The notes under the pieces: model-generated
Seen by the model: only the letters and a program-made list of their open reading frames with translations
The model's database searches: none
Told to the model about the DNA's origin: nothing
Shown: piece after piece, positions 1-42,653 of the stretch
How positions within the stretch are numbered: the first letter of the stretch is position 1
How the letters are laid out: each line of letters starts with the position of its first letter
Program-made: the position numbers and the translations under genes
Sequence record: OX457022
Origin: Escherichia phage vB_EcoP-CC1
Length of the DNA: 44,532 bases
Strand: one strand, 5' to 3'

Positions 1-127
1 CATGTGCTGAAGGAGTGGCCTACATGCGACCAAACTTCGACTTCGGAGCTACAGTATCGGAAGACAATAATCTCATCCTGTGGCCGACTGAAGGTGAGAG
101 AATCGCTCTCATAGATGCTGACATGTT
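1..127. repeat. terminal overlap of the contig (identical to 44406-44532)
   Basis: Exact 127-nt identity between window start and end; consistent with a circular or concatemeric assembly opened inside the exonuclease gene. Confidence 0.95.
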
Positions 128-1052
128 ACCTTATATCGTAGGGTACACAATCAGTGACATGACTTATGTACGAGCCACAACTCGTGTTAAGTCAGGACAA
201 GTCCAATCAATCAAAGATACACCTGAGTGTAAGCAAGCATGTGACCGTGTGAACTCCTTGCTTAACTCTTGGGTGTATGCAGCAGAGTGTGATGCAGCTA
301 AGCTATTCATGACAAAATCAGAAGCTAACTTCCGTGTTCGCCTAGCATTCACCAAGCCTTATAAGGGTCAACGTAAGACCGAGAAGCCTCCATTCTTCTA
401 TGAATTACGAGAGCATCTCTTAGAGGTGCATGGTGCAATCTTGGCTGATGGTGAGGAAGCAGATGACCTAATGAGCATCGCACAATGGGACAGCCATCGC
501 CGCTTCCAGCAAGATACAGGTAACGAGTTCCCTATCGGTAGTCCAGAGCATAAAGCATTCTCTGATACTTGCATCGTTTCCTTAGATAAGGATTTGATGA
601 TTGTTCCCGGTTGGCATCTACTGCCGGGAGGTGAGAAGAAATGGGTAGAGCCTATGGGTTGGCTTGAGCTACGCCGCAAGGCTAATGGTCAAGTGAAAGA
701 CCTTAAAGGTGCTGGCCTCATGTTCCATTATGCACAGATGATTATCGGTGATGACATAGATAATTATGCTGGCATACCTGGGCGTGGAGCTAAATATGCC
801 TATGATCTTCTCAAAGATTGCAAGACAGAGAAAGAGTTGTACATGGCAGTGCTTGGTGCTTACAAGGCTAAGTTCGGACATGGACAAGTTAAGATTAAGA
901 ATTACCGAGGTGGTTATCGTATCGGCAAGGCTTTTGATCTCATGCTTGAATGTGGTCGCCTAGCTCACATGGCGAGATTCAAAGGTGATATCTGGAGGGC
1001 TGATAAGAATGAAATCTTATGGGGAGAAGGTGATGGATGGCTAGTAAACTAA
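24..1052 (+). CDS. 5'-3' exonuclease (T7 gene 6-like, FEN/H3TH family)
   Basis: ATG at 24 with AGGAG 8 nt upstream (ORF track begins at GTG 15); H3TH-like motif GDDIDNYAGIPGRGAKYA; sits beside endonuclease and ligase. Confidence 0.8.
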   Translation: MRPNFDFGATVSEDNNLILWPTEGERIALIDADMLPYIVGYTISDMTYVRATTRVKSGQVQSIKDTPECKQACDRVNSLLNSWVYAAECDAAKLFMTKSEANFRVRLAFTKPYKGQRKTEKPPFFYELREHLLEVHGAILADGEEADDLMSIAQWDSHRRFQQDTGNEFPIGSPEHKAFSDTCIVSLDKDLMIVPGWHLLPGGEKKWVEPMGWLELRRKANGQVKDLKGAGLMFHYAQMIIGDDIDNYAGIPGRGAKYAYDLLKDCKTEKELYMAVLGAYKAKFGHGQVKIKNYRGGYRIGKAFDLMLECGRLAHMARFKGDIWRADKNEILWGEGDGWLVN

Positions 1053-1447
1053 AATCTTCAGAGGTGGCAGCTTATAAGAAAGAGCTTATGGAGAAGCAAG
1101 GTTGGAAGTGTCCTCTGTGCGGAGGCAGCCTTAAGGCAGTAAGTCCTATCAACCGTGTACTTGACCATGATCATGAGACAGGTTTCTGTCGTGCTGTTGT
1201 GTGTCGTGGCTGCAACGGTGCAGAAGGAAAGATTAAGGGTGTTATATCTGGCTACGGAAAGGCAGGTAATAACCGCTACTTCCAACTACAATGGTTAGAA
1301 CGCCTGTATAACTACTGGAAGTTGCATAGTACACCTCAGACAGATAAGTTATATCATAATCATAAAACGGAGGCAGAGAAACGAGAGGCTAAAAATCGTA
1401 AGGCTCGCCTGGCTTATGCAAGAAAGAAGGAGGTTAAGAGTGGCTAA
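1037..1447 (+). CDS. endonuclease VII-like Holliday-junction resolvase
   Basis: 136 aa; Cys/His motifs CPLCGG and LDHDHETGFCRAVVCRGCNG typical of the endo VII/HNH-like family; overlaps exonuclease stop. Confidence 0.7.
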   Translation: MASKLKSSEVAAYKKELMEKQGWKCPLCGGSLKAVSPINRVLDHDHETGFCRAVVCRGCNGAEGKIKGVISGYGKAGNNRYFQLQWLERLYNYWKLHSTPQTDKLYHNHKTEAEKREAKNRKARLAYARKKEVKSG

Positions 1448-2447
1448 ACTTCGTAGCCTTTATAAAGACTCCGAGGTGCTTGATGCAATCGAGCAAGCTA
1501 CCGACGAGAAAGGTAATGTTAACTATAATGAGATGGCGAAGGTTCTATCTAGCCACCCTGTGGGTAAGAAGATCACCCGTCAACTTGCTCGCTACTGGCA
1601 TGGTCAATTCAAGAAGACCAAGAAGAATGGTGATTATTACCAGACTCTTCTGCAAGAGGATAAGCGTATCAAAGAAGAGCGTAAGCTCAGGACTCCTGAC
1701 CGCTACGAGGATTTGGCTATTGTACCATTGCCTGACTCGCCTCATCGAAGTGTACTGGTAATCCCTGATACTCATGCACCTTATGAGCACCCAGATACCT
1801 TAGAGTTCCTTGCAGCAGTGGCAGCACGTTATCGACCAGACACAGTGGTACATCTTGGAGATGAGGCAGATAAACATGCCCTGTCATTCCATGATTCGGA
1901 TCCAAATTTGGACAGTGCTGGCATGGAGTTAGAGAAGGCTCGTGTCTTCATGCACAAGTTGCACAAGATGTTCCCTGTGATGCGCCTGTGTCACTCTAAC
2001 CACGGATCTATGCATTTCCGTAAAGCGAGCGCCAAGGGTATTCCTGTGCAATACCTGCGTACCTATCGTGAAGTCTTCTTCCCGAATGGAGGTGGCGACC
2101 AGTGGGACTGGCAGCATACTCATGTGCTTGAGTTGCCGAATGGCGAACAGGTGGCATTCAAGCACCAACCTGCTGGTTCTGTCCTAGCAGATGCAGCGCA
2201 TGAGCGCATGAACCTAGTGTGTGGACATTTGCATGGTAAGATGTCGGTAGAGTATGCACGTAATACACATGAACAGTATTGGGCTGTGCAGGGTGGCTGT
2301 CTGATTGATGAGTCCTCTCGTGCATTTGCCTATGGTCGTGAGTCTAAATACAAGCCAGCATTAGGTTGTGTGGTTATTCTGGAAGGTGTGCCTCATATTG
2401 TCCCGATGCAGACCAATAGTGACAATCGCTGGATTGGTAAGATTTAG
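1416..2447 (+). CDS. calcineurin-like metallophosphoesterase
   Basis: Ordered signature motifs IPDTHAPY (DxH), HLGDEADKH (GDxxD), CHSNHGSMH (GNH-like), CGHLHGK; alternative GTG start at 1440 has AAGGAGG 7 nt upstream. Confidence 0.8.
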   Translation: MQERRRLRVAKLRSLYKDSEVLDAIEQATDEKGNVNYNEMAKVLSSHPVGKKITRQLARYWHGQFKKTKKNGDYYQTLLQEDKRIKEERKLRTPDRYEDLAIVPLPDSPHRSVLVIPDTHAPYEHPDTLEFLAAVAARYRPDTVVHLGDEADKHALSFHDSDPNLDSAGMELEKARVFMHKLHKMFPVMRLCHSNHGSMHFRKASAKGIPVQYLRTYREVFFPNGGGDQWDWQHTHVLELPNGEQVAFKHQPAGSVLADAAHERMNLVCGHLHGKMSVEYARNTHEQYWAVQGGCLIDESSRAFAYGRESKYKPALGCVVILEGVPHIVPMQTNSDNRWIGKI

Positions 2448-2463
2448 TTGACACTATAGAACA
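2442..2463 (+). promoter_or_regulatory. phage RNAP promoter, SP6-type variant (ATTTAGTTGACACTATAGAAC), +1 G at 2459
   Basis: Matches core GACACTATAG of the promoter family; -12 to -10 is GTT rather than the class I CTG/CCG. Confidence 0.6.
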
Positions 2464-2515
2464 AAGGGCAGGTAATGTCTTGCCCTTGATTGTATAGTGA
2501 ATGGAGGAATTAATT

Positions 2516-3001
2516 ATGTCAGAGACTGATATTAGAAAGATTGATATTGGAGAGTACGTCGTACGCCGTGCAGCTTACCGAGATGCCAACTGGAATAAAC
2601 TGTGTGAAAGACTAAACAAGAAACCAGATGAGGTATTCAAAGTATCCAGTGCAGAACCTAATTATAACTCTATCATGTTAGAAGGTGTTGAGAAGCGCGA
2701 ATGGTATGCGCCTTACTTCCATGTTGTTGACTCATTGCAAGGTGAAGAACCTAACACGTTGGACAACAATATGGTTACTAAGCCGAAGCACTATGAGTTC
2801 TTCGAAGGTGTAGAAGCGATTACTATCATTGCCCGCAGCATGACCGAGAAGCAATTCGCTGGCTATTGCATGGGTAATGCTTTGAAGTACCGCCTACGTG
2901 CAGGTAAGAAGTTCAACACTGAAGAAGACCTGAAGAAAGCAGACTACTATAAGGAGTTATTCCAGAAGCATCGTCACGAATGTATTGATGAGGATATTTG
3001 A
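2516..3001 (+). CDS. T7 gp1.7-like nucleotide (dNMP) kinase
   Basis: C-terminal half KPKHYEFFEGVEAITIIARSMTEKQFAGYCMGNALKYRLRAGKK...ADYYKELFQKH matches recalled C-terminus of T7 gene 1.7 protein; GGAGGA 8 nt upstream of ATG 2516. Confidence 0.55.
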   Translation: MSETDIRKIDIGEYVVRRAAYRDANWNKLCERLNKKPDEVFKVSSAEPNYNSIMLEGVEKREWYAPYFHVVDSLQGEEPNTLDNNMVTKPKHYEFFEGVEAITIIARSMTEKQFAGYCMGNALKYRLRAGKKFNTEEDLKKADYYKELFQKHRHECIDEDI

Positions 3002-3002
3002 T

Positions 3003-3950
3003 ATGAATATCTTTGAGTTCCTAGGTCTTCCAGAAGATCACCGCAACCACCCATTCATGTTGGTGAAACATCGTGGTGAAGTCCCTGAGAAGAAATTAAC
3101 CTTTCCATGTTATGCACAGGTGAAACGAGATGGAATATTCAGTGCTGTTGTGGTGCGTAATGATGGTGCTGTTGCCATCTTTGGTCGTACTGGTAAGAAG
3201 CTCGCAAATGTTGAAGCCTTGGAAAAGACATTTAGTGTATTTCCTGTCGGGTTGTATCTTGGTGAGTTGCAATCTATGGCTGTTGATGTTTATCTTGAAG
3301 CTCTATCAGGAGTGGTAAACCCTAATCGTACAGAGCCACTTGATTTCATAGGCCAGCAGATTAAAGACAACCTGTATATCGACTTCTTCGATATGTTAAC
3401 CATTAAGGCATTCCATGATGGATTCACTGATGTTTCTTATCTCAAACGTTACGATGCTTTACATCGTCGCATCGGCACTCATCTTAGCGGGTACAACGCT
3501 ATTCTTCCTATTACTCCTTGCCATAATGAGAGAGAGGTTGAAGCGTTTGCTCAAGAGCAAATAGATGCAGGCCGAGAGGGTGCTGTCTTTAAACTTGACT
3601 GTGATTATGAAGCAGGCCATAAAGGATATCGTCAGACTAAAGAAGTCCGTAAGGTAACTTATGACCTTACTTGTATTGGCTTTGAAGAAGGCAAAGGTAA
3701 GTACAAGGGTAAGGTAGCTAACCTCATTTTCAAATGGAAAGGAGGCAAGACAATCAAAGCTATGCTAGGTAAGGGGTGGACTCATGCAGATGCAGAACAG
3801 ATGTTCCATGATATTAAACATGGCGGACGATTGAATGTCATTGGTAAAATCTTTGAAGTCAAAGGTCTTCAGGATTCAAGCAAGGGCAACATTCGTCAGC
3901 CCAAAGCGGGAGAATTAAGACATGACAAAGATGAACCAGATTTCTTTTGA
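3003..3950 (+). CDS. ATP-dependent DNA ligase
   Basis: Adenylation motif KxDG present as VKRDGIFSAVV; ~315 aa; ORF track start 2985, likely start ATG 3003. Confidence 0.8.
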   Translation: MNIFEFLGLPEDHRNHPFMLVKHRGEVPEKKLTFPCYAQVKRDGIFSAVVVRNDGAVAIFGRTGKKLANVEALEKTFSVFPVGLYLGELQSMAVDVYLEALSGVVNPNRTEPLDFIGQQIKDNLYIDFFDMLTIKAFHDGFTDVSYLKRYDALHRRIGTHLSGYNAILPITPCHNEREVEAFAQEQIDAGREGAVFKLDCDYEAGHKGYRQTKEVRKVTYDLTCIGFEEGKGKYKGKVANLIFKWKGGKTIKAMLGKGWTHADAEQMFHDIKHGGRLNVIGKIFEVKGLQDSSKGNIRQPKAGELRHDKDEPDFF

Positions 3951-4137
3951 TAGTATGAAGGCGACTCGTGCTGTTGAGGTAGCAGAAGCTATCTTTGAAA
4001 CTTTATCTTGCGGCATGGAAGTGCCATATACTTTACTGGCTGATGCAGAAGAACTTGGTCTTTCTGTAGAAGCTATCCAAGAGAAAGTTGAGGAACTCTA
4101 TGGTACAGACGAAGAAGAAACCGACGATTTCATTTGA
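3922..4137 (+). CDS. hypothetical small acidic protein
   Basis: 71-codon ORF, GGGAGA 8 nt upstream of ATG; overlaps ligase 3' end; acidic C-terminus. Confidence 0.4.
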   Translation: MTKMNQISFDSMKATRAVEVAEAIFETLSCGMEVPYTLLADAEELGLSVEAIQEKVEELYGTDEEETDDFI

Positions 4138-4141
4138 GGGG

Positions 4142-4270
4142 ATGGAGATGCTTGAGATGATTCTCAAGCCTTCTTCTCCGAAAGTAACTAAGACTCATGA
4201 AGAGTTAATCGTAGATGAAGTGAAGCGTTACATTATGGATTGTGTCAAGGCACAACTGGTAGTCCAATGA
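4142..4270 (+). CDS. hypothetical protein (about 42 aa)
   Basis: Short ORF filling gap between flanking genes; start uncertain (ORF track 4088). Confidence 0.25.
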   Translation: MEMLEMILKPSSPKVTKTHEELIVDEVKRYIMDCVKAQLVVQ

Positions 4271-4728
4271 TACGTCAAGCATCTTTCTTAGATATACCTG
4301 AGATTATTAATCTAGGCGACAAGTATGTAGAAGAGGAAGTTAAGGTAGTAGCACACCACTCTCCTTCATGGAATGCAGAACAAAGCGCAGCAAACCTGTG
4401 TGCATCTCTTGTCCGAGATGATTTATTCTTATGGGTTGCTGTAGATGAGGGAATCATTGTAGGATTCCTATGGGCTGGGTATCATGACTTAGCACCTTGG
4501 ACACCAGTGCGTGTTGCATCTGATATTCTTTTCTACATCGTACCAGAGAAGCGTGGCACTCTCTTAGGAATGAGACTTATCAAAGCCTATAAGCAATGGG
4601 CTTTTGAGAAGGAATGTGCTGAAGTGAGACTGTCTATTGCCTCTGGTATCAATGAAGAGCGTGTTGGGCGTATGTATGAGCGGTTAGGCTTTGAGACGTT
4701 CGGCACTGTGTATAACCTGAAACTTTAA
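4267..4728 (+). CDS. hypothetical protein, possible GNAT-like acetyltransferase
   Basis: 153 aa; VPEKRGTLLGMRLI and C-terminal YERLGFE resemble GNAT motif A and C-terminal signature; weak, unverified. Confidence 0.4.
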   Translation: MIRQASFLDIPEIINLGDKYVEEEVKVVAHHSPSWNAEQSAANLCASLVRDDLFLWVAVDEGIIVGFLWAGYHDLAPWTPVRVASDILFYIVPEKRGTLLGMRLIKAYKQWAFEKECAEVRLSIASGINEERVGRMYERLGFETFGTVYNLKL

Positions 4729-39201: not shown

Positions 39202-39309
39202 ATGCCACGTGATTATGATTCTGATTGGGACTACTATGACTCAATGAATCCAAAACCCGAACGTTCAGATGATTACTACGAAACAGAGGCAATGTATGAA
39301 AACTATTGA
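39202..39309 (+). CDS. hypothetical small acidic protein (35 aa)
   Basis: Below ORF-track cutoff; GGAGGTG RBS; Asp/Tyr-rich; overlaps DNA polymerase start. Confidence 0.4.
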   Translation: MPRDYDSDWDYYDSMNPKPERSDDYYETEAMYENY

Positions 39310-41842
39310 TTGGAAGAAGGAAGCAGAAGGCCGCATCCTCGTCATGGACGCAGAAGCTAAAGGTCTGCTTGATGCTATCCGCTACGGTCATCGTGAAGAT
39401 GTACACATCATTTGCTGCATGGACTTGCTCACCACTGAGGAGTTCCTCTTCTTCGACCCATATGAGATGCGTGACCCTGAAGCAAGAGAACGCCTGAAGG
39501 AGTGGGAAGGCCATCAAGATGGTGACTTGGTTGACGGTGTTAACTTCCTGAAACACTGTGAAGCTATCGTGTCACAGAACTTCCTAGGGTATGACGGCCT
39601 CCTTTTTGAGAAAGCCTTCCCTGATATCTGGAAAGGTTTTAACTATACCGAAAGGCGCGGCAAGGGCAGACTCCGTGCCGACCTGTGTCCTGTGCGAGTC
39701 ATGGACACGCTGGTGATGAGCCGCCTGTTAAACCCCGATAGACGCCTTCCTCCGCAAGCATATGCCAAAGGTATGGGTAACGTCGCCCCTCATTCAATTG
39801 AGGCGCACGGCATCCGTATAGGACGCTATAAGCCGGAGAATGAGGACTGGTCTAAACTAACTGACCACATGGTTCACCGTGTCCGCGAGGACGTGGCAAT
39901 CGGTCGTGACCTTTTCCTGTGGCTGTACAATGGAGAGTGGACGGAGCATAAACGCCGTGGCGTGAATAAACGCACTGGCCTAGGCATTGAGACAGCCTTC
40001 CACATGGAGTCTATTGTGGCGCTGGAGATGAGCCGTCAGGCAGAGCGTGGATTCCGTCTGGATATTGACAAAGCACTAGCGCGATGCGAAGAACTGGACG
40101 CTAAGATTGATGAGACAGTCGCAGCGTTCCGCCCTCACATGCCTATGCGTATCAAGTCTAAACCTTTTAAACCGGAAGAAAAGAATGAAGTATGCCAACG
40201 CGCAAATGAGTATGGAGCTAGCAACAATATACCTACTGTCCTTGACCCCTCACACTTTCTTCATGCCGAGAGACGAGGAGATCGCAAGACAGTATGGAGT
40301 GTCACTACTAAGTCTGGTGATTGGTCGGCTAGCGTCAAGAAAGACTTTCCTCACCTTAGAGGAAACCGTAATGACACGCCAAGCATCAAGTGGATTGGCG
40401 CTTACTCGCCTGTTACTTTCGAAGAGATTCCCTTGGGTAACAGGGATACAGTTAAGCAAGTGCTCTATGATTATGGATGGAAAGGTGTTGAATTTAACGA
40501 TACCGAGCAAGCGCATCTCGATGAGCATGGCGTATTACCCAAACCTTGGAGTGGAAAGATAAATGAGAAATCCCTTACTTTATGGCAAGAAAGAGCCGCA
40601 CGTGAAGGTAAAACAGTACCAGATTGGTGCTTGGGTATCGCTGCATGGTACATACTCGTATCCCGTCGTGGTCAGATCCTCAACCGTGGTGACGTTGAAG
40701 CCTTCGATCAGAAGGGGGCGTGGCCTTCGCAAGCTGGTGTACGAAAGTGTCGCGGCCTTATACCTGTAGCCTTTAACAAGGAATTAGGAATCAATGCGCA
40801 ACAATACTACGAGAGGTATGGGTATTGGCCTACGTCTGACAAGGATGACGGAGAGTGGCGTGTGCCAGCTATTGCTATTAGTATTGGCACTTCTACGTTC
40901 CGTATGCGTCATCGCAATGTGGTTAATATTCCTGCCCGTGGCTTGTATCCTTTACGTGATTTATTCATAGCAGGTAAAGGTAAGCTAATCCTTGGTTGTG
41001 ATGGTGCAGGTCTTGAACTACGTGTACTTTCTCACTTCATGAATGACCCTGAGTACCAAGATATTGTACTGCATGGCGATATACATACTCATAACCAGAT
41101 GAAGGCGGGTCTTCCTAAGCGTGATATGGCGAAGACATTTATATATGCCTTCCTTTACGGCTCTGGTATAGCTAACCTTGCAGCAGTGTGCGGTGTTACT
41201 GAGGAAGAAATGAAGGAAGTTGTGGCAAGATTCGAGATTGAATTACCATCCCTTGCACGTCTTCGTGAGAATGTTATCGCACAAGGCAACAAGTTTGGAT
41301 ACTTACAAGCACCTGACGGGCATTGGGGTCGCATCCGTATGTCTGGTGGAGAACTTAAAGAGCACACTATGCTTAATGTATTACTCCAAATGACTGGCTC
41401 TTTGTGTATGAAATACGCATTGGTCAAAGCGTTTGCAGTGATGCGCAAGGAAGGTGTGGCCTTAGATAGTATGGGACACCCTTGTGGTGTAGCTAACGTG
41501 CACGATGAAATCCAGATGGAAGTACCTGAAGAAGAGGTATTGTATCTTAACTACGACCTACCTTTCACCTTAGAGGGGTTTGAAACAGAGAAGGCTGCTG
41601 TGAAAGCAGTATTCGATGCAGAGGAGAAACGTGTTCATGTGGATTCTGAAGGACGTATGTGGTCTGCTGCAAATCTCATTAGTGTTGATGCTGCTGCTGG
41701 TGTACTTCATTGCCAGCGTCGTTATCACCGCGCAGGGCATATCATTGCCGACGCCATGACTTGGGCTGGTCAGTATCTGAAGATGCGTTGCCCGATGGCA
41801 GGCGAGTATAAGATTGGCGCAAGCTGGAAGGAAACGCACTAG
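39296..41842 (+). CDS. DNA polymerase (family A, T7 gp5-like)
   Basis: 848 aa from ATG 39296 (ORF track 39269); polymerase-type motifs incl. HDEIQMEV; position after primase-helicase. Confidence 0.9.
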   Translation: MKTIDWKKEAEGRILVMDAEAKGLLDAIRYGHREDVHIICCMDLLTTEEFLFFDPYEMRDPEARERLKEWEGHQDGDLVDGVNFLKHCEAIVSQNFLGYDGLLFEKAFPDIWKGFNYTERRGKGRLRADLCPVRVMDTLVMSRLLNPDRRLPPQAYAKGMGNVAPHSIEAHGIRIGRYKPENEDWSKLTDHMVHRVREDVAIGRDLFLWLYNGEWTEHKRRGVNKRTGLGIETAFHMESIVALEMSRQAERGFRLDIDKALARCEELDAKIDETVAAFRPHMPMRIKSKPFKPEEKNEVCQRANEYGASNNIPTVLDPSHFLHAERRGDRKTVWSVTTKSGDWSASVKKDFPHLRGNRNDTPSIKWIGAYSPVTFEEIPLGNRDTVKQVLYDYGWKGVEFNDTEQAHLDEHGVLPKPWSGKINEKSLTLWQERAAREGKTVPDWCLGIAAWYILVSRRGQILNRGDVEAFDQKGAWPSQAGVRKCRGLIPVAFNKELGINAQQYYERYGYWPTSDKDDGEWRVPAIAISIGTSTFRMRHRNVVNIPARGLYPLRDLFIAGKGKLILGCDGAGLELRVLSHFMNDPEYQDIVLHGDIHTHNQMKAGLPKRDMAKTFIYAFLYGSGIANLAAVCGVTEEEMKEVVARFEIELPSLARLRENVIAQGNKFGYLQAPDGHWGRIRMSGGELKEHTMLNVLLQMTGSLCMKYALVKAFAVMRKEGVALDSMGHPCGVANVHDEIQMEVPEEEVLYLNYDLPFTLEGFETEKAAVKAVFDAEEKRVHVDSEGRMWSAANLISVDAAAGVLHCQRRYHRAGHIIADAMTWAGQYLKMRCPMAGEYKIGASWKETH

Positions 41843-42113: not shown

Positions 42114-42491
42114 ATGTCTATGGTAACTACTCTGGTATTCGTAGCTCAATACTTTCGTGGCCTGGCTAATAAGTTTAAACAGAAAGCAATCTTTGCAATT
42201 CAAGAACGTATTAATAAAATTGAAGAAGAACAAGTAGATGTAGAGGAACATCGTAGTTCTCAGATGATTGACCTGCATAATCGTCTGTACAAAGATCGTG
42301 ATGAGATGCGTCACCGTCATGCGAAGGAAGTTGAAGACATGCTTAACCGCCATGCGGAAGAACAAGCTAAGTTGGAAACCACTTTCCATGAGGATAAACG
42401 TAGCATCGCTCTAGCACATCAAGCTGCATCGGATAGCCTGAAGAAAGAGATTGTTATGCTGGAGATTGAGTTAGACAATCTTACCAAATAA
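42114..42491 (+). CDS. hypothetical coiled-coil protein (125 aa)
   Basis: RBS TAGGAGA; charged heptad-like sequence through most of the length. Confidence 0.55.
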   Translation: MSMVTTLVFVAQYFRGLANKFKQKAIFAIQERINKIEEEQVDVEEHRSSQMIDLHNRLYKDRDEMRHRHAKEVEDMLNRHAEEQAKLETTFHEDKRSIALAHQAASDSLKKEIVMLEIELDNLTK

Positions 42492-42511
42492 TTACTGGAC
42501 ACTATAGAACA
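42490..42511 (+). promoter_or_regulatory. phage RNAP promoter (AATTACTGGACACTATAGAAC), +1 G at 42507
   Basis: One mismatch from class I consensus (A for T at -16); overlaps stop codon of preceding gene. Confidence 0.7.
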
Positions 42512-42653
42512 ATAGGTCGGCTTAGTTCGGCCTATGATTGTAAAGTGTTGAACCTTATTGTGCATCTTGCACAACCCGATACCGTATCGGGCTTTCTAGT
42601 GAGTACATGCTTGTGCTCAGTACAAAGCTAACTGACAATAGGAGACTAAATAA

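Follow-up and report, generated by a model that had tools for sequence, protein, structure and literature searches.

The metallophosphoesterase (MPE) encoded between an endonuclease VII gene and a gp1.7-like kinase gene in Escherichia phage vB_EcoP-CC1 (sequence record OX457022; the whole stretch analysed, 44,532 nt, is referred to here as the window) may well act on DNA. By analogy with its relatives and neighbours, we lean, with slightly better than even confidence, towards a Mn-dependent DNA phosphodiesterase with a part in replication and in the breakdown of host DNA, the released dNMPs being salvaged by the kinase. The phage is an SP6/K1E-like podophage, and the locus makes up the last part of its DNA-metabolism (class II) module.

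Gene order and relationship to SP6-like phages

Over the window the sequence is the same as that of Escherichia phage vB_EcoP-CC2 (Vectrevirus, SP6/K1E group; 100% identity), and the DNA identity to K1E/SP6-group phages is 82-99%. The order of the locus is exonuclease, T4-type endonuclease VII (endo VII), MPE, a promoter inside a hairpin, DUF3310 kinase and ATP-dependent ligase. The outer genes are:

24..1052, plus strand: T7 gp6-like 5'-3' exonuclease (SP6 gene 20; PHROG 107, E 6.7e-72; Pfam 5_3_exonuc)
3003..3950, plus strand: ATP-dependent DNA ligase (SP6 gene 24; Pfam DNA_ligase_A_M and DNA_ligase_OB_2; PHROG 114, E 6e-71; LL11 annotation)

Read from ATG 24, the exonuclease gene is 1029 nt long, the same as in LL11, and it shares its last 16 nt with the start of endo VII; the ligase, which is a DNA ligase of the T7 gp1.3 type, starts 2 nt past the kinase stop. 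The three plus-strand ORFs in between correspond to SP6 genes 21-23 and are real, each with a significant family match, and the identities given to them in an earlier sequence-only reading (endo VII, metallophosphoesterase and gp1.7-like kinase) agree with Pfam and PHROG for all three. That reading had also described the arrangement as absent from T7, which holds: tblastn against the whole T7 genome recovered the gp1.7 C-terminus only, with no MPE and no endo VII, and the kinase gene also differs in position from T7 gene 1.7, which has genes 1.6 and 1.8 as its neighbours and is distant from the resolvase. As a noteworthy feature the arrangement carries little weight, because the order is standard in the SP6 group; the orthologues in SP6 (genes 21-23), K1E/K1-5 and LL11 (gp27-29) share order, overlaps and the intergenic promoter and hairpin. 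The products of LL11 gp27-29 are already labelled endonuclease VII, metallo-phosphoesterase and nucleotide kinase, and in vB_EcoP-CC2 the same genes carry the label 'hypothetical protein'. The module is ordinary and its genes are already annotated in close relatives (SP6 genes 20-24, LL11 and others).

Endonuclease VII

1037..1447, plus strand: T4 endonuclease VII-type junction endonuclease, 136 aa (SP6 gene 21; PF02945, PHROG 423)

The product matched Pfam PF02945 with 48.1 bits (E 1.1e-12; cut-off 23.6) and PHROG 423 with E 9e-48, and a phmmer comparison with the T4 structure 1e7d (E 4.4e-8) showed that the CxxC, LDHDHE and CxxCNxAEG motifs are kept. The Zn ligands (C25/C28/C56/C59) and the catalytic residues (D43-H44-D45-H46-E47 and N60...E63) are shared with T4 endonuclease VII (gp49), whose zinc and active-site residues we take to have these roles. 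The protein is shorter than T4 gp49 (136 versus 157 aa) and its C-terminal dimerisation region is divergent. A junction-cutting role is thus predicted from the family match and the conserved site.

Structure of the metallophosphoesterase

1428..1434, plus strand: Shine-Dalgarno sequence AAGGAGG of the MPE, inside the endo VII coding sequence
1440..1739, plus strand: MPE N-terminal helical domain, about 100 aa (AF2 model)
1740..2447, plus strand: MPE catalytic core (SP6 gene 22, PHROG 221; profile matches, AF2, Foldseek, hhalign)
1767-1769, plus strand: D110
1773-1775, plus strand: H112
1857-1871, plus strand: G140-D141-E-A-D144
1995-2003, plus strand: S186-N187-H188
2163-2165, plus strand: H242
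2223-2234, plus strand: G262-H263-L-H265

Translation from GTG 1440, the start annotated in LL11 and SP6, yields 335 aa, and homologues of equal length cover 100% of this protein. ATG 1416 was considered as an alternative start and rejected, given that GTG 1440 has a ribosome-binding site and the length that matches the homologues. The last 8 nt of the endo VII gene, stop codon included, are at the same time the first 8 nt of the MPE gene, and the MPE is predicted from this layout to be translationally coupled to endo VII.

While the match to Pfam PF00149 barely exceeds the cut-off (21.7 versus 21.5 bits), that to PHROG 221 is strong (E 2.8e-105). The motifs D110-x-H112, GDEAD, SNH, H242 and GHxH are invariant in 30 homologues (48-84% identical to the window protein), and the binuclear metal-ligand set (D110, H112, D141, N187, H188, H242, H263, H265) is for this reason considered complete. 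The full motif set claimed earlier therefore stands as regards the ligands but not in its wording, since motif III is SNHG and not GNH. The AF2 model (mean pLDDT 84.8) is an alpha/beta sandwich of the MPE fold, and the 39 PDB matches listed by Foldseek at E up to 1e-3 were all of this fold; no nuclease-specific fold match was found by Foldseek, LpxH scoring level with Mre11 at TM-scores of 0.3-0.5.

The N-terminal domain consists of five helices (AF2 pLDDT about 80-94) and is an addition to the core; many relatives, about 235 aa long, do without it. Remote family members carry a Pfam helix-turn-helix (HTH) domain at the same N-terminal position (P0183; HTH_24, E 2.4e-6), and a direct Pfam HTH match was not found in this domain of the SP6-type MPE clade; we infer that it is probably a helix-turn-helix (...NYNEMAKVLS-x-KKITRQLARYW...). 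In some family members, intein-like insertions fall exactly within motifs I and II. Inteins are typical of replication and nucleotide-metabolism proteins.

Relatives of the metallophosphoesterase

Profile comparison places the MPE in a phage clade (PHROG 221) that contains Bxb1 gp47 and D29 gp54, and these mycobacteriophage phosphoesterases are, by the same measure, its sole specific relatives. Bxb1 gp47 matched PHROG 221 with E 4.5e-116 and is assigned to the same family as the window MPE; the MPE family profile aligned by hhalign to Bxb1 gp47 with 90% probability (E 1.6e-6, 190 columns) and to D29 gp54 with 75.5% probability, and the match to the cluster-A gp47/gp54 proteins spans motifs I-V. 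The resemblance of Bxb1 gp47 and L5/D29 gp54 to the MPE is remote (about 23% identity). The cluster-A MPE genes, too, belong to a block of replication genes and have an endo VII gene close by; their products differ in being core-only (255 aa, without the N-terminal domain) and in having GNHD as motif III where SNHG is found here. Bxb1 gp47, a recombination directionality factor, moonlights with a serine integrase, whereas the lytic phage studied here is without such an integrase.

Reports on these relatives concern DNA. Bxb1 gp47 is needed for Bxb1 DNA replication and showed weak Mn/Mg exonuclease activity, for which contamination was not excluded by the authors (PMC11795197); according to another study it 'does not exhibit phosphoesterase activity', while A10ZJ24 gp48 combines phosphodiesterase and DNase activity and breaks down the DNA of the host (PMC12287305).

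Promoter, hairpin and kinase

2442..2461, plus strand: phage RNA-polymerase promoter ATTTAGTTGACACTATAGAA (10 matches in the window with up to 3 mismatches, versus 0 expected)
2452..2499, plus strand: conserved, imperfect hairpin (CACUAUA...UAUAGUG), its 5' arm formed by the promoter core
2516..2773, plus strand: kinase N-terminal small beta-rich (SH3/KOW-like) domain (AF2, Foldseek)
2774..3001, plus strand: kinase DUF3310 domain (SP6 gene 23; PF11753; T7 gp1.7 similarity)

The MPE and the kinase are separated by a promoter and hairpin element (2442-2499), the promoter of which overlaps the MPE stop codon (TAG, 2445-2447); with what we take to be the SP6 promoter consensus, the predicted +1 is G2459. 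The hairpin has an MFE of -25.3 kcal/mol (z -6.0) and is kept in SP6-like loci whichever gene comes next, with 99.1% of cells paired and 7 of 18 pairs changed on both sides, a result reached by 0 of 500 shuffles; the SP6 hairpin loop, unlike the one here, has an insertion of about 32 nt. Only read-through transcripts contain the complete hairpin, which may therefore serve as an RNase III-type processing site or stabilise the 5' end. Read-through transcripts would probably be processed at the MPE/kinase boundary, and the kinase and ligase would also be served by their own promoter. With a promoter standing between them, the MPE and the kinase are less firmly linked than the MPE and endo VII.

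For the kinase, the start codon is ATG 2516, preceded by GGAGGA (2503-2508), and the product has 161 aa. It matched Pfam PF11753 (DUF3310) with 88.7 bits (E 2.5e-25; cut-off 24) and the 'nucleotide kinase' family PHROG 1689 with E 3.8e-45; it shares both the C-terminal domain and the PHROG family with T7 gp1.7. Residues invariant in the homologue alignment of DUF3310 are P90...H92-Y93...IARSMT...GN-LKYRLRAGKK. Full-length similarity to T7 gp1.7 was not found by BLASTP: only the C-terminal 73 residues align (64% identical to gp1.7 residues 122-194), and the Cys-rich N-terminal half of the T7 protein is unmatched, the kinase here having instead an unrelated SH3-like barrel. Residues 10-70 of this N-terminal domain were modelled by AF2 with pLDDT above 90, the SH3/KOW/FeoA-like matches returned by Foldseek were all non-significant, and kinase N-termini vary across the homologue alignment. 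T7 gp1.7 phosphorylates dTMP and dGMP, as cited in PMC11897194. A nucleotide kinase activity is predicted for the protein studied here by analogy, with an N-terminal half that differs from that of T7 gp1.7.

Conservation of the MPE neighbourhood

The MPE family was found in 651 phage records, and its gene is conserved at a fixed position across several Autographiviridae subfamilies and many host genera, always within the DNA-replication module. The usual order is exonuclease, endo VII, MPE, one nucleotide-pool enzyme and ligase: endo VII lies within 600 nt of the MPE gene at 54 of 88 loci, and a nucleotide-pool enzyme lies just downstream in at least 22 of the 44 lineages examined; at KP34-like loci the MPE gene instead follows DNA polymerase. 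This is the pattern of a conserved core gene for replication, unlike that of a variable accessory gene. The slot after it holds, interchangeably, a gp1.7-like kinase, a T4 gp1-like dNMP kinase (PHROG 139) or a PF18909 domain, even among phages with MPEs that are 77-88% identical, and may be a swap site for non-homologous nucleotide-pool enzymes. Host sensors could be driving such swapping; Avs5, for one, recognises T7 gp1.7.

Proposed function and alternatives

In the DNA phosphodiesterase model, the MPE would be produced in step with endo VII and would act as a Mn2+-dependent endo- or exonuclease on single-stranded, flapped or branched DNA, contributing with the gp6-like exonuclease and endo VII to phage DNA replication, recombination and host-chromosome breakdown. 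Released dNMPs would be re-phosphorylated by the gp1.7-like kinase, and presumably also by host NDP kinase, for phage DNA synthesis, and nicks would be sealed by the ligase. The earlier suggestion of a role in host DNA or nucleotide salvage is the best supported one because the MPE is always in the replication module and its relatives are tied to DNA replication or degradation, and the nucleotide-enzyme neighbours are consistent with it; the choice of substrate is the conjectural step.

Some observations sit less comfortably with a DNA substrate. The kinship with gp47/gp54 is as remote as described above and motif III differs from theirs; no nuclease-specific fold was matched, the HTH is a prediction and the reports on gp47 activity conflict; and a nucleotide enzyme next door would be just as fitting if the substrate were free nucleotides.

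It is possible, if rather doubtful, that the MPE acts on free nucleotides and reshapes the dNTP pool together with the downstream kinase, candidate substrates being 3'-nucleotides, 2',3'-cyclic nucleotides, dNTP/NDP pyrophosphate bonds and Ap4A. The frequency of nucleotide-pool enzymes in the downstream slot is in keeping with this, as is the presence of the pyrophosphatase LpxH and the Ap4A hydrolase SapH among the best structural matches, but the MPE profile aligned by hhalign to LpxH with 1.2% and to ApaH with 0.9% only. Furthermore, the HTH-like N-terminus and the remote HTH fusions suggest a DNA-bound enzyme, the MPE is linked most tightly to endo VII and DNA polymerase while the kinase has its own promoter, and the characterised relatives act on DNA (PMC12287305, PMC11795197).

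An unlikely alternative makes MPE, kinase and ligase an end-healing and sealing pathway, like T4 Pnkp plus ligase or bacterial Pnkp, in which the MPE would be a 3'-phosphatase or 2',3'-cyclic phosphodiesterase, the kinase would act on 5'-OH ends and the ligase would seal; cuts made by host nucleases in the nucleic acid of phage or host would be mended in this way. In this phage, as in many lineages, the MPE, kinase and ligase genes stand side by side, and neighbour genes have been called 'polynucleotide 5' kinase' by some authors (PMC9145550); however, the P-loop kinases of the slot match the T4 gp1-type dNMP kinase family PHROG 139 and not Pnk, the slot in some lineages holds a PF18909 domain that is not a kinase, the KP34-like MPE adjoins neither ligase nor kinase, the ligase is of the T7 gp1.3 DNA ligase type, and T7 gp1.7 is a mononucleotide kinase (PMC11897194). 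The pathway also draws on the P. putida MPE (PdeM), a Mn-dependent ssDNA endonuclease of an Lhr-MPE-Exo-ligase repair operon, which is small, monomeric and cap-less, is encoded next to exonuclease and ATP-dependent ligase genes, and yields 3'-PO4 and 3'-OH ends (PMC7826289). Its structure (6nvp) is among the Foldseek matches of the window MPE (E 1.4e-3), but the match to the NCBIfam PdeM model TIGR04123 (ligase-associated DNA damage response endonuclease) reaches 21.9 bits against a cut-off of 150 (E 9e-5) and covers profile positions 46-78 only (motifs I-II), and the Lhr helicase has no counterpart at this locus. The likeness to PdeM is best taken as an analogy of operon logic and not as demonstrated membership.

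The proposal, offered as speculative in the sequence-only reading, that the MPE is a counter-defence phosphodiesterase against cyclic (oligo)nucleotide signals (CBASS, Pycsar, Thoeris, type III CRISPR) seems very improbable. Some MPEs hydrolyse cAMP, E. coli CpdA being annotated as a cAMP phosphodiesterase, and the active site is intact; against this, hhalign gave 5.6% for CpdA, an identity rejected on that score, and 0.8% for D29 gp66, and no PADLOC-related signal was found. Counter-defence genes are usually variable accessory genes, whereas this gene is strongly conserved at a fixed place in the replication module, and the intein-like insertions and HTH fusions of its family point to DNA metabolism. 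We give equally little credence to a protein Ser/Thr phosphatase like lambda NinI. GenBank records of relatives do say 'phosphatase 2a-like' (see also PMC9145550) and lambda phosphatase is among the fold matches (E 8e-4), yet hhalign gave 9.6% over 81 columns for NinI, on which this identity was rejected, and the genomic context is DNA metabolism. The signature motifs of PPP phosphatases are GDxVDRG and GNHE; those of the MPE, GDEADKH and SNHG, do not fit them. Least credible of all is a Mre11/SbcD-type double-strand-break nuclease, the assignment that the sequence-only reading had named as telling against its own view: hhalign gave 2.8% over 30 columns for E. coli SbcD, and the identity was rejected on that score, the TM-score to MjMre11 in Foldseek was about 0.32 among generic fold matches, the catalytic core, at about 235 aa, is too small to include a capping domain, and tblastn with E. 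coli SbcC over the whole window (E up to 1) found no SbcC-like gene, a search that a highly divergent partner could escape.

Implications

Beyond the DNA phosphodiesterase model, a broader and distinctly tentative proposal is that MPEs of the SP6/KP34 type may form an undescribed class of HTH-tethered DNA nucleases made together with endo VII, the slot downstream being a swap site. If true, replication or host-DNA degradation in hundreds of Autographiviridae would depend on the MPE.

Genome identity and gene order

A megablast search with region 1000-3100 matched the Escherichia phage vB_EcoP-CC2 (OX638290, 44,531 bp) at 100% identity, together with 95 further records of the K1E/K1-5/SP6 group (Vectrevirus and Zindervirus, Molineuxvirinae); query coverage was at least 80% in 74 records in all. 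The window is the vB_EcoP-CC2 genome in rotated form. The features considered here are:

1037-1447, + strand, T4 endonuclease VII-type gene (endo VII)
1440-2447, + strand, metallophosphoesterase gene (MPE), TAG stop at 2445-2447
2442-2461, phage-RNA-polymerase promoter match
2452-2499, imperfect hairpin of 48 nt
2516-3001, + strand, gp1.7-like DUF3310 gene (kinase)

The three genes proposed by the sequence-only reading are real, as all ORFs are present with family matches, although gene starts had to be corrected. Their counterparts are SP6 genes 21, 22, and 23, with gene 20 (exonuclease) upstream and gene 24 (ligase) downstream, and LL11 carries the annotations endonuclease VII, metallo-phosphoesterase, nucleotide kinase, and DNA ligase for its counterparts. 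The arrangement had also been described as absent from T7, and tblastn and annotation bear this out, T7 having no homologue of either endo VII or the MPE; in the SP6 group, however, the arrangement is simply the standard order. The cluster is an ordinary SP6-like phage module that has been sequenced and annotated before, and it adds little, given that deposited, annotated records of SP6, K1E, LL11, and dozens of relatives already show the same genes in the same order.

Endo VII matched Pfam PF02945 (E 1.1e-12) and PHROG 423 (E 9e-48). The T4 endonuclease VII structure 1e7d aligns to it (E 4.4e-8), with both CxxC pairs and the catalytic residues LDHDHE...N..E retained. Further downstream, a conserved acidic 71-aa protein (3922-4137, PHROG 5860) and a GNAT acetyltransferase (4240-4728; Pfam Acetyltransf_1 E 4.9e-9, PHROG 1249) sit between the ligase and portal genes.

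Start, active site, and integrity of the MPE gene

The true start of the MPE gene is GTG 1440, which is preceded by AAGGAGG at 1428-1434, and the MPE gene thereby shares 8 nt with the end of the endo VII gene. The resulting protein is 335 aa long, and homologues are likewise 335 aa and cover 100% of it. While it matched PHROG 221 strongly (E 2.8e-105), it barely passed Pfam Metallophos (21.7 bits vs a cut-off of 21.5). Across 30 aligned homologues, whose identity to the window protein is 48-84%, D110, H112, G140-D141-E142, D144, S186-N187-H188, H242, and G262-H263-x-H265 are invariant. The metal-ligand set is therefore complete, as the sequence-only reading had held, but its third motif is SNH rather than the GNH given there.

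The MPE is split into two ORFs, comprising the N-terminal domain and the catalytic core, in at least two deposited GenBank genomes: K1E KY435490, with BFVD entries of 104 aa and 237 aa, and Klebsiella phage IME184, with proteins of 106 aa (P0402) and 229 aa (P0046). Either a sequencing frameshift has broken the gene or it genuinely comes in two pieces, and the latter, if true, would be consistent with an N-terminal domain that is a separable module.

Kinship of the MPE

The family profile was compared with individual proteins by hhalign, in the manner of the HHpred search by which the sequence-only reading had proposed to distinguish an Mre11-like nuclease from a phosphodiesterase.

Table. hhalign probabilities of individual proteins against the MPE family profile
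Bxb1 gp47: 90% (E 1.6e-6, 190 columns)
D29 gp54: 75.5%
Lambda NinI phosphatase: 9.6%
E. coli CpdA: 5.6%
E. coli SbcD: 2.8%
E. coli LpxH: 1.2%
E. coli ApaH: 0.9%
D29 gp66: 0.8%

Bxb1 gp47 was also assigned to PHROG 221 (E 4.5e-116), and no SbcC-like gene was found in the genome. On the strength of these probabilities, the common PHROG, and the lack of an SbcC-like gene, the MPE belongs to a phage-specific clade exemplified by mycobacteriophage gp47/gp54, and an Mre11-like assignment is not borne out. Nor, on the same evidence, is it a PPP, CpdA, ApaH, or LpxH enzyme, or one of the Mre11/SbcD type.

A literature search found no experimental paper on an SP6-group MPE, and functional information comes from the mycobacteriophage members. 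Bxb1 gp47 serves the Bxb1 serine integrase as recombination directionality factor, and phage DNA replication requires it as well; a weak, Mn/Mg-dependent exonuclease activity was reported in 2025 by a study whose authors proposed a replication-associated nuclease role (PMC11795197). A gp47 homologue, A10ZJ24 gp48, is both a phosphodiesterase and a DNase; it breaks down the host chromosome, and phage DNA replication in M. tuberculosis depends on it (PMC12287305). The same paper states that Bxb1 gp47 "does not exhibit phosphoesterase activity", so that published accounts of the clade's biochemistry diverge.

Structure, N-terminal domain, and intein-like insertions

The AlphaFold2 model of the MPE, built from a 30-sequence alignment, was confident (mean pLDDT 84.8, pTM 0.77) and has an N-terminal domain of five helices, spanning ~100 residues, ahead of an alpha/beta MPE core. 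Searches of PDB sequences with the single sequence and the family profile gave no meaningful match, and Foldseek against the PDB returned generic superfamily matches only, with TM-scores of ~0.3-0.5.

Table. Foldseek PDB matches to the MPE model
LpxH: E 1.7e-6
M. jannaschii Mre11: E 2.7e-6
Vps29: E from 4.4e-5
SapH: E 7.6e-4
Lambda phosphatase: E 8.1e-4
P. putida MPE: E 1.4e-3

The structural neighbours reported for Bxb1 gp47, namely Mre11, the PolD DP1 subunit, and LpxH (PMC11795197), cover the same spectrum. Against BFVD, Foldseek found merely the protein's own orthologues or generic MPE-fold matches, and thus no subfamily can be assigned from structure alone.

A family-wide profile search yielded 3,157 representatives at 50% identity, and because many of these are core-only (~235 aa), the N-terminal domain is an add-on. 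In the remote members P0183 (HTH_24 E 2.4e-6) and P0145, a Pfam-detectable HTH occupies the same N-terminal position; a Pfam scan of the 30 family members detected no HTH in the window's own clade, and a search for the N-terminal domain in other proteins returned two MPE fragments only and no other protein context. The remote HTH members support, but do not prove, a DNA-binding role for this domain.

Four family members (P0121, P0156, P0275, and P0160) carry in-frame insertions of ~300 aa, located exactly after GDE of motif II in three and after D-L-H of motif I in P0160. All have Cys at both junctions and an N-terminal pattern of C-[YFV]-P...E-[VL]-[LM]-T-x-x-G-W. A LAGLIDADG_3 domain in P0160 was the sole Pfam match among the inserts; neither Pfam nor PDB sequence searches detected a Hint domain, the PDB search being empty. 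From their sequences, these insertions resemble inteins, present at two independent sites. Replication and nucleotide-metabolism proteins are the usual carriers of inteins, and the placement of these insertions exactly within the motifs marks the latter as functionally critical.

The idea of a substitute proofreading exonuclease was also considered. The DNA polymerase (39269-41842) is a family A enzyme of 857 aa in which Pfam detects the polymerase domain only (residues 542-761), and its N-terminal 540 residues show only a weak alignment to a portion of the N-terminal (exonuclease) region of T7 gp5 (E 0.003). Near residue 27 there is a possible D-x-E Exo I motif.

Distribution of the MPE and the variable gene behind it

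By tblastn, the MPE was found in 651 phage records, from phages of Klebsiella, Escherichia, Pectobacterium, Pseudomonas, Aeromonas, Vibrio, Proteus, Salmonella, and Yersinia. Synteny was sampled in 88 loci (44 clusters at 90% MPE identity), where the usual order was exonuclease, endo VII, MPE, one gene, and ligase, and in 54 of the 88, endo VII lay no more than 600 nt from the MPE; KP34-like loci differ in having DNA polymerase and a 73-aa ORF before the MPE. The position between MPE and ligase, here termed slot X, is variable.

Table. Genes occupying slot X
gp1.7-like DUF3310 protein: SP6/K1E group
T4 gp1-like P-loop dNMP kinase: PHROG 139, E down to 1.8e-36
PF18909 "dATP/dGTP diphosphohydrolase N-terminal" protein: E 4e-27
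Other DUF3310-like variants

These genes are non-homologous (hhalign found no relationship between the DUF3310 and PF18909 sets), and they are swapped even between phages whose MPEs are 77-88% identical, always behind the same promoter-hairpin element. Replacements of the equivalent of 2500-3001 were seen in related loci L027, L023, L031, L033, L006, L004, L007, and others. Given this variation across lineages, the slot holds interchangeable nucleotide-pool enzymes, which by functional analogy supports the kinase assignment and sets the MPE beside nucleotide salvage. A recent report has T7 gp1.7 activating the defence protein Avs5 (PMC11897194), and we speculate that Avs5 recognition could drive turnover of the slot.

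The predicted kinase itself (161 aa) starts at ATG 2516 behind GGAGGA and matched DUF3310 (E 2.5e-25) and "nucleotide kinase" PHROGs. T7 gp1.7 is 64% identical to it, but only over the C-terminal 73 residues, the DUF3310 half, which was modelled at low confidence (AlphaFold2 pLDDT 36-65) and had no significant Foldseek match; a MazG-like fold is a candidate for it. The N-terminal half (2516-2773) is modelled as a small beta-barrel (pLDDT >90), for which the SH3/KOW/FeoA-like Foldseek matches were all non-significant. N-terminal domains are heavily shuffled across the family, with Cys-rich, T7-like N-termini at the position of the barrel in some homologues; one locus, L033, has the barrel together with the T7-like element CQACLEKDDRFGHTC and a C-terminus that is a DUF3310-like variant.

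Promoter-hairpin element

The window contains ten matches to a phage-RNA-polymerase promoter, with 0 expected by chance. One of them, ATTTAGTTGACACTATAGAA at 2442-2461, runs over the stop codon of the MPE. Its core, CACTATAG, forms the 5' arm of the hairpin, which has the layout CACUAUA-GAACAA-[variable stem-loop]-UUGAUUG-UAUAGUG and folds at -25.3 kcal/mol (z -6.0; none of 200 shuffles as stable). In a set of 12 distinct sequences, pairing holds in 99.1% of cells, and both partners have changed in 7 of 18 pairs, a result reached by none of 500 shuffles; the compensatory changes are in the inner stem. The element is kept in SP6-like genomes whatever gene comes next, SP6 itself differing by a ~32-nt insertion in the loop, and a second copy lies at about 42490-42543 of the window, its hairpin occupying about 42496-42543. 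An Rfam scan of 900-3200 gave nothing relevant, leaving the hairpin without a match.

Transcription should start inside the hairpin, at G2459, and the whole stem would therefore be present only in read-through transcripts. By analogy with T7, the hairpin may be an RNase III-type processing site for such transcripts or a 5' stabiliser; an intrinsic terminator was ruled out, there being no T-run behind it. In practical terms, the kinase and ligase have their own promoter, while the MPE is instead translationally coupled to endo VII.

Proposed function and alternatives

We infer, at slightly better than even confidence, that the MPE is a Mn-dependent DNA phosphodiesterase. It would join the gp6-like exonuclease and endo VII in replication, recombination, and host-DNA breakdown, and the released dNMPs would be re-phosphorylated by the gp1.7-like kinase; T7 gp1.7 is described as converting dTMP and dGMP to diphosphates (PMC11897194).

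Hydrolysis of free nucleotides would suit the gene adjoining the MPE, but such an enzyme is unlikely in view of the HTH fusions and the linkage to endo VII and polymerase. That the MPE, kinase, and ligase are contiguous could instead point to end-healing, for which a weak PdeM match and the analogy of the P. putida MPE (PMC7826289) also speak; slot X kinases are, however, of the mononucleotide type, and in some cases the slot is filled by something other than a kinase, making this role quite improbable. Of the roles suggested by the sequence-only reading, salvage or DNA metabolism is plausible, whereas hydrolysis of cyclic nucleotides in counter-defence is very improbable for a protein that lacks similarity to CpdA or gp66 and behaves like a core gene; PADLOC gave no match for the MPE or kinase. 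A protein phosphatase is very doubtful too, the profile match being weak and the motifs divergent, and an Mre11/SbcD-type nuclease, with neither profile similarity nor an SbcC partner, is extremely unlikely.

The remaining value of the cluster lies in the MPE, a conserved gene in 651 sequenced phages, including Klebsiella, E. coli, and Salmonella phages. Its tie to the Bxb1 gp47/A10ZJ24 gp48 clade argues against listing it as a counter-defence candidate, and offers a concrete hypothesis, namely that it may be a DNA phosphodiesterase on which replication or host-DNA degradation depends.
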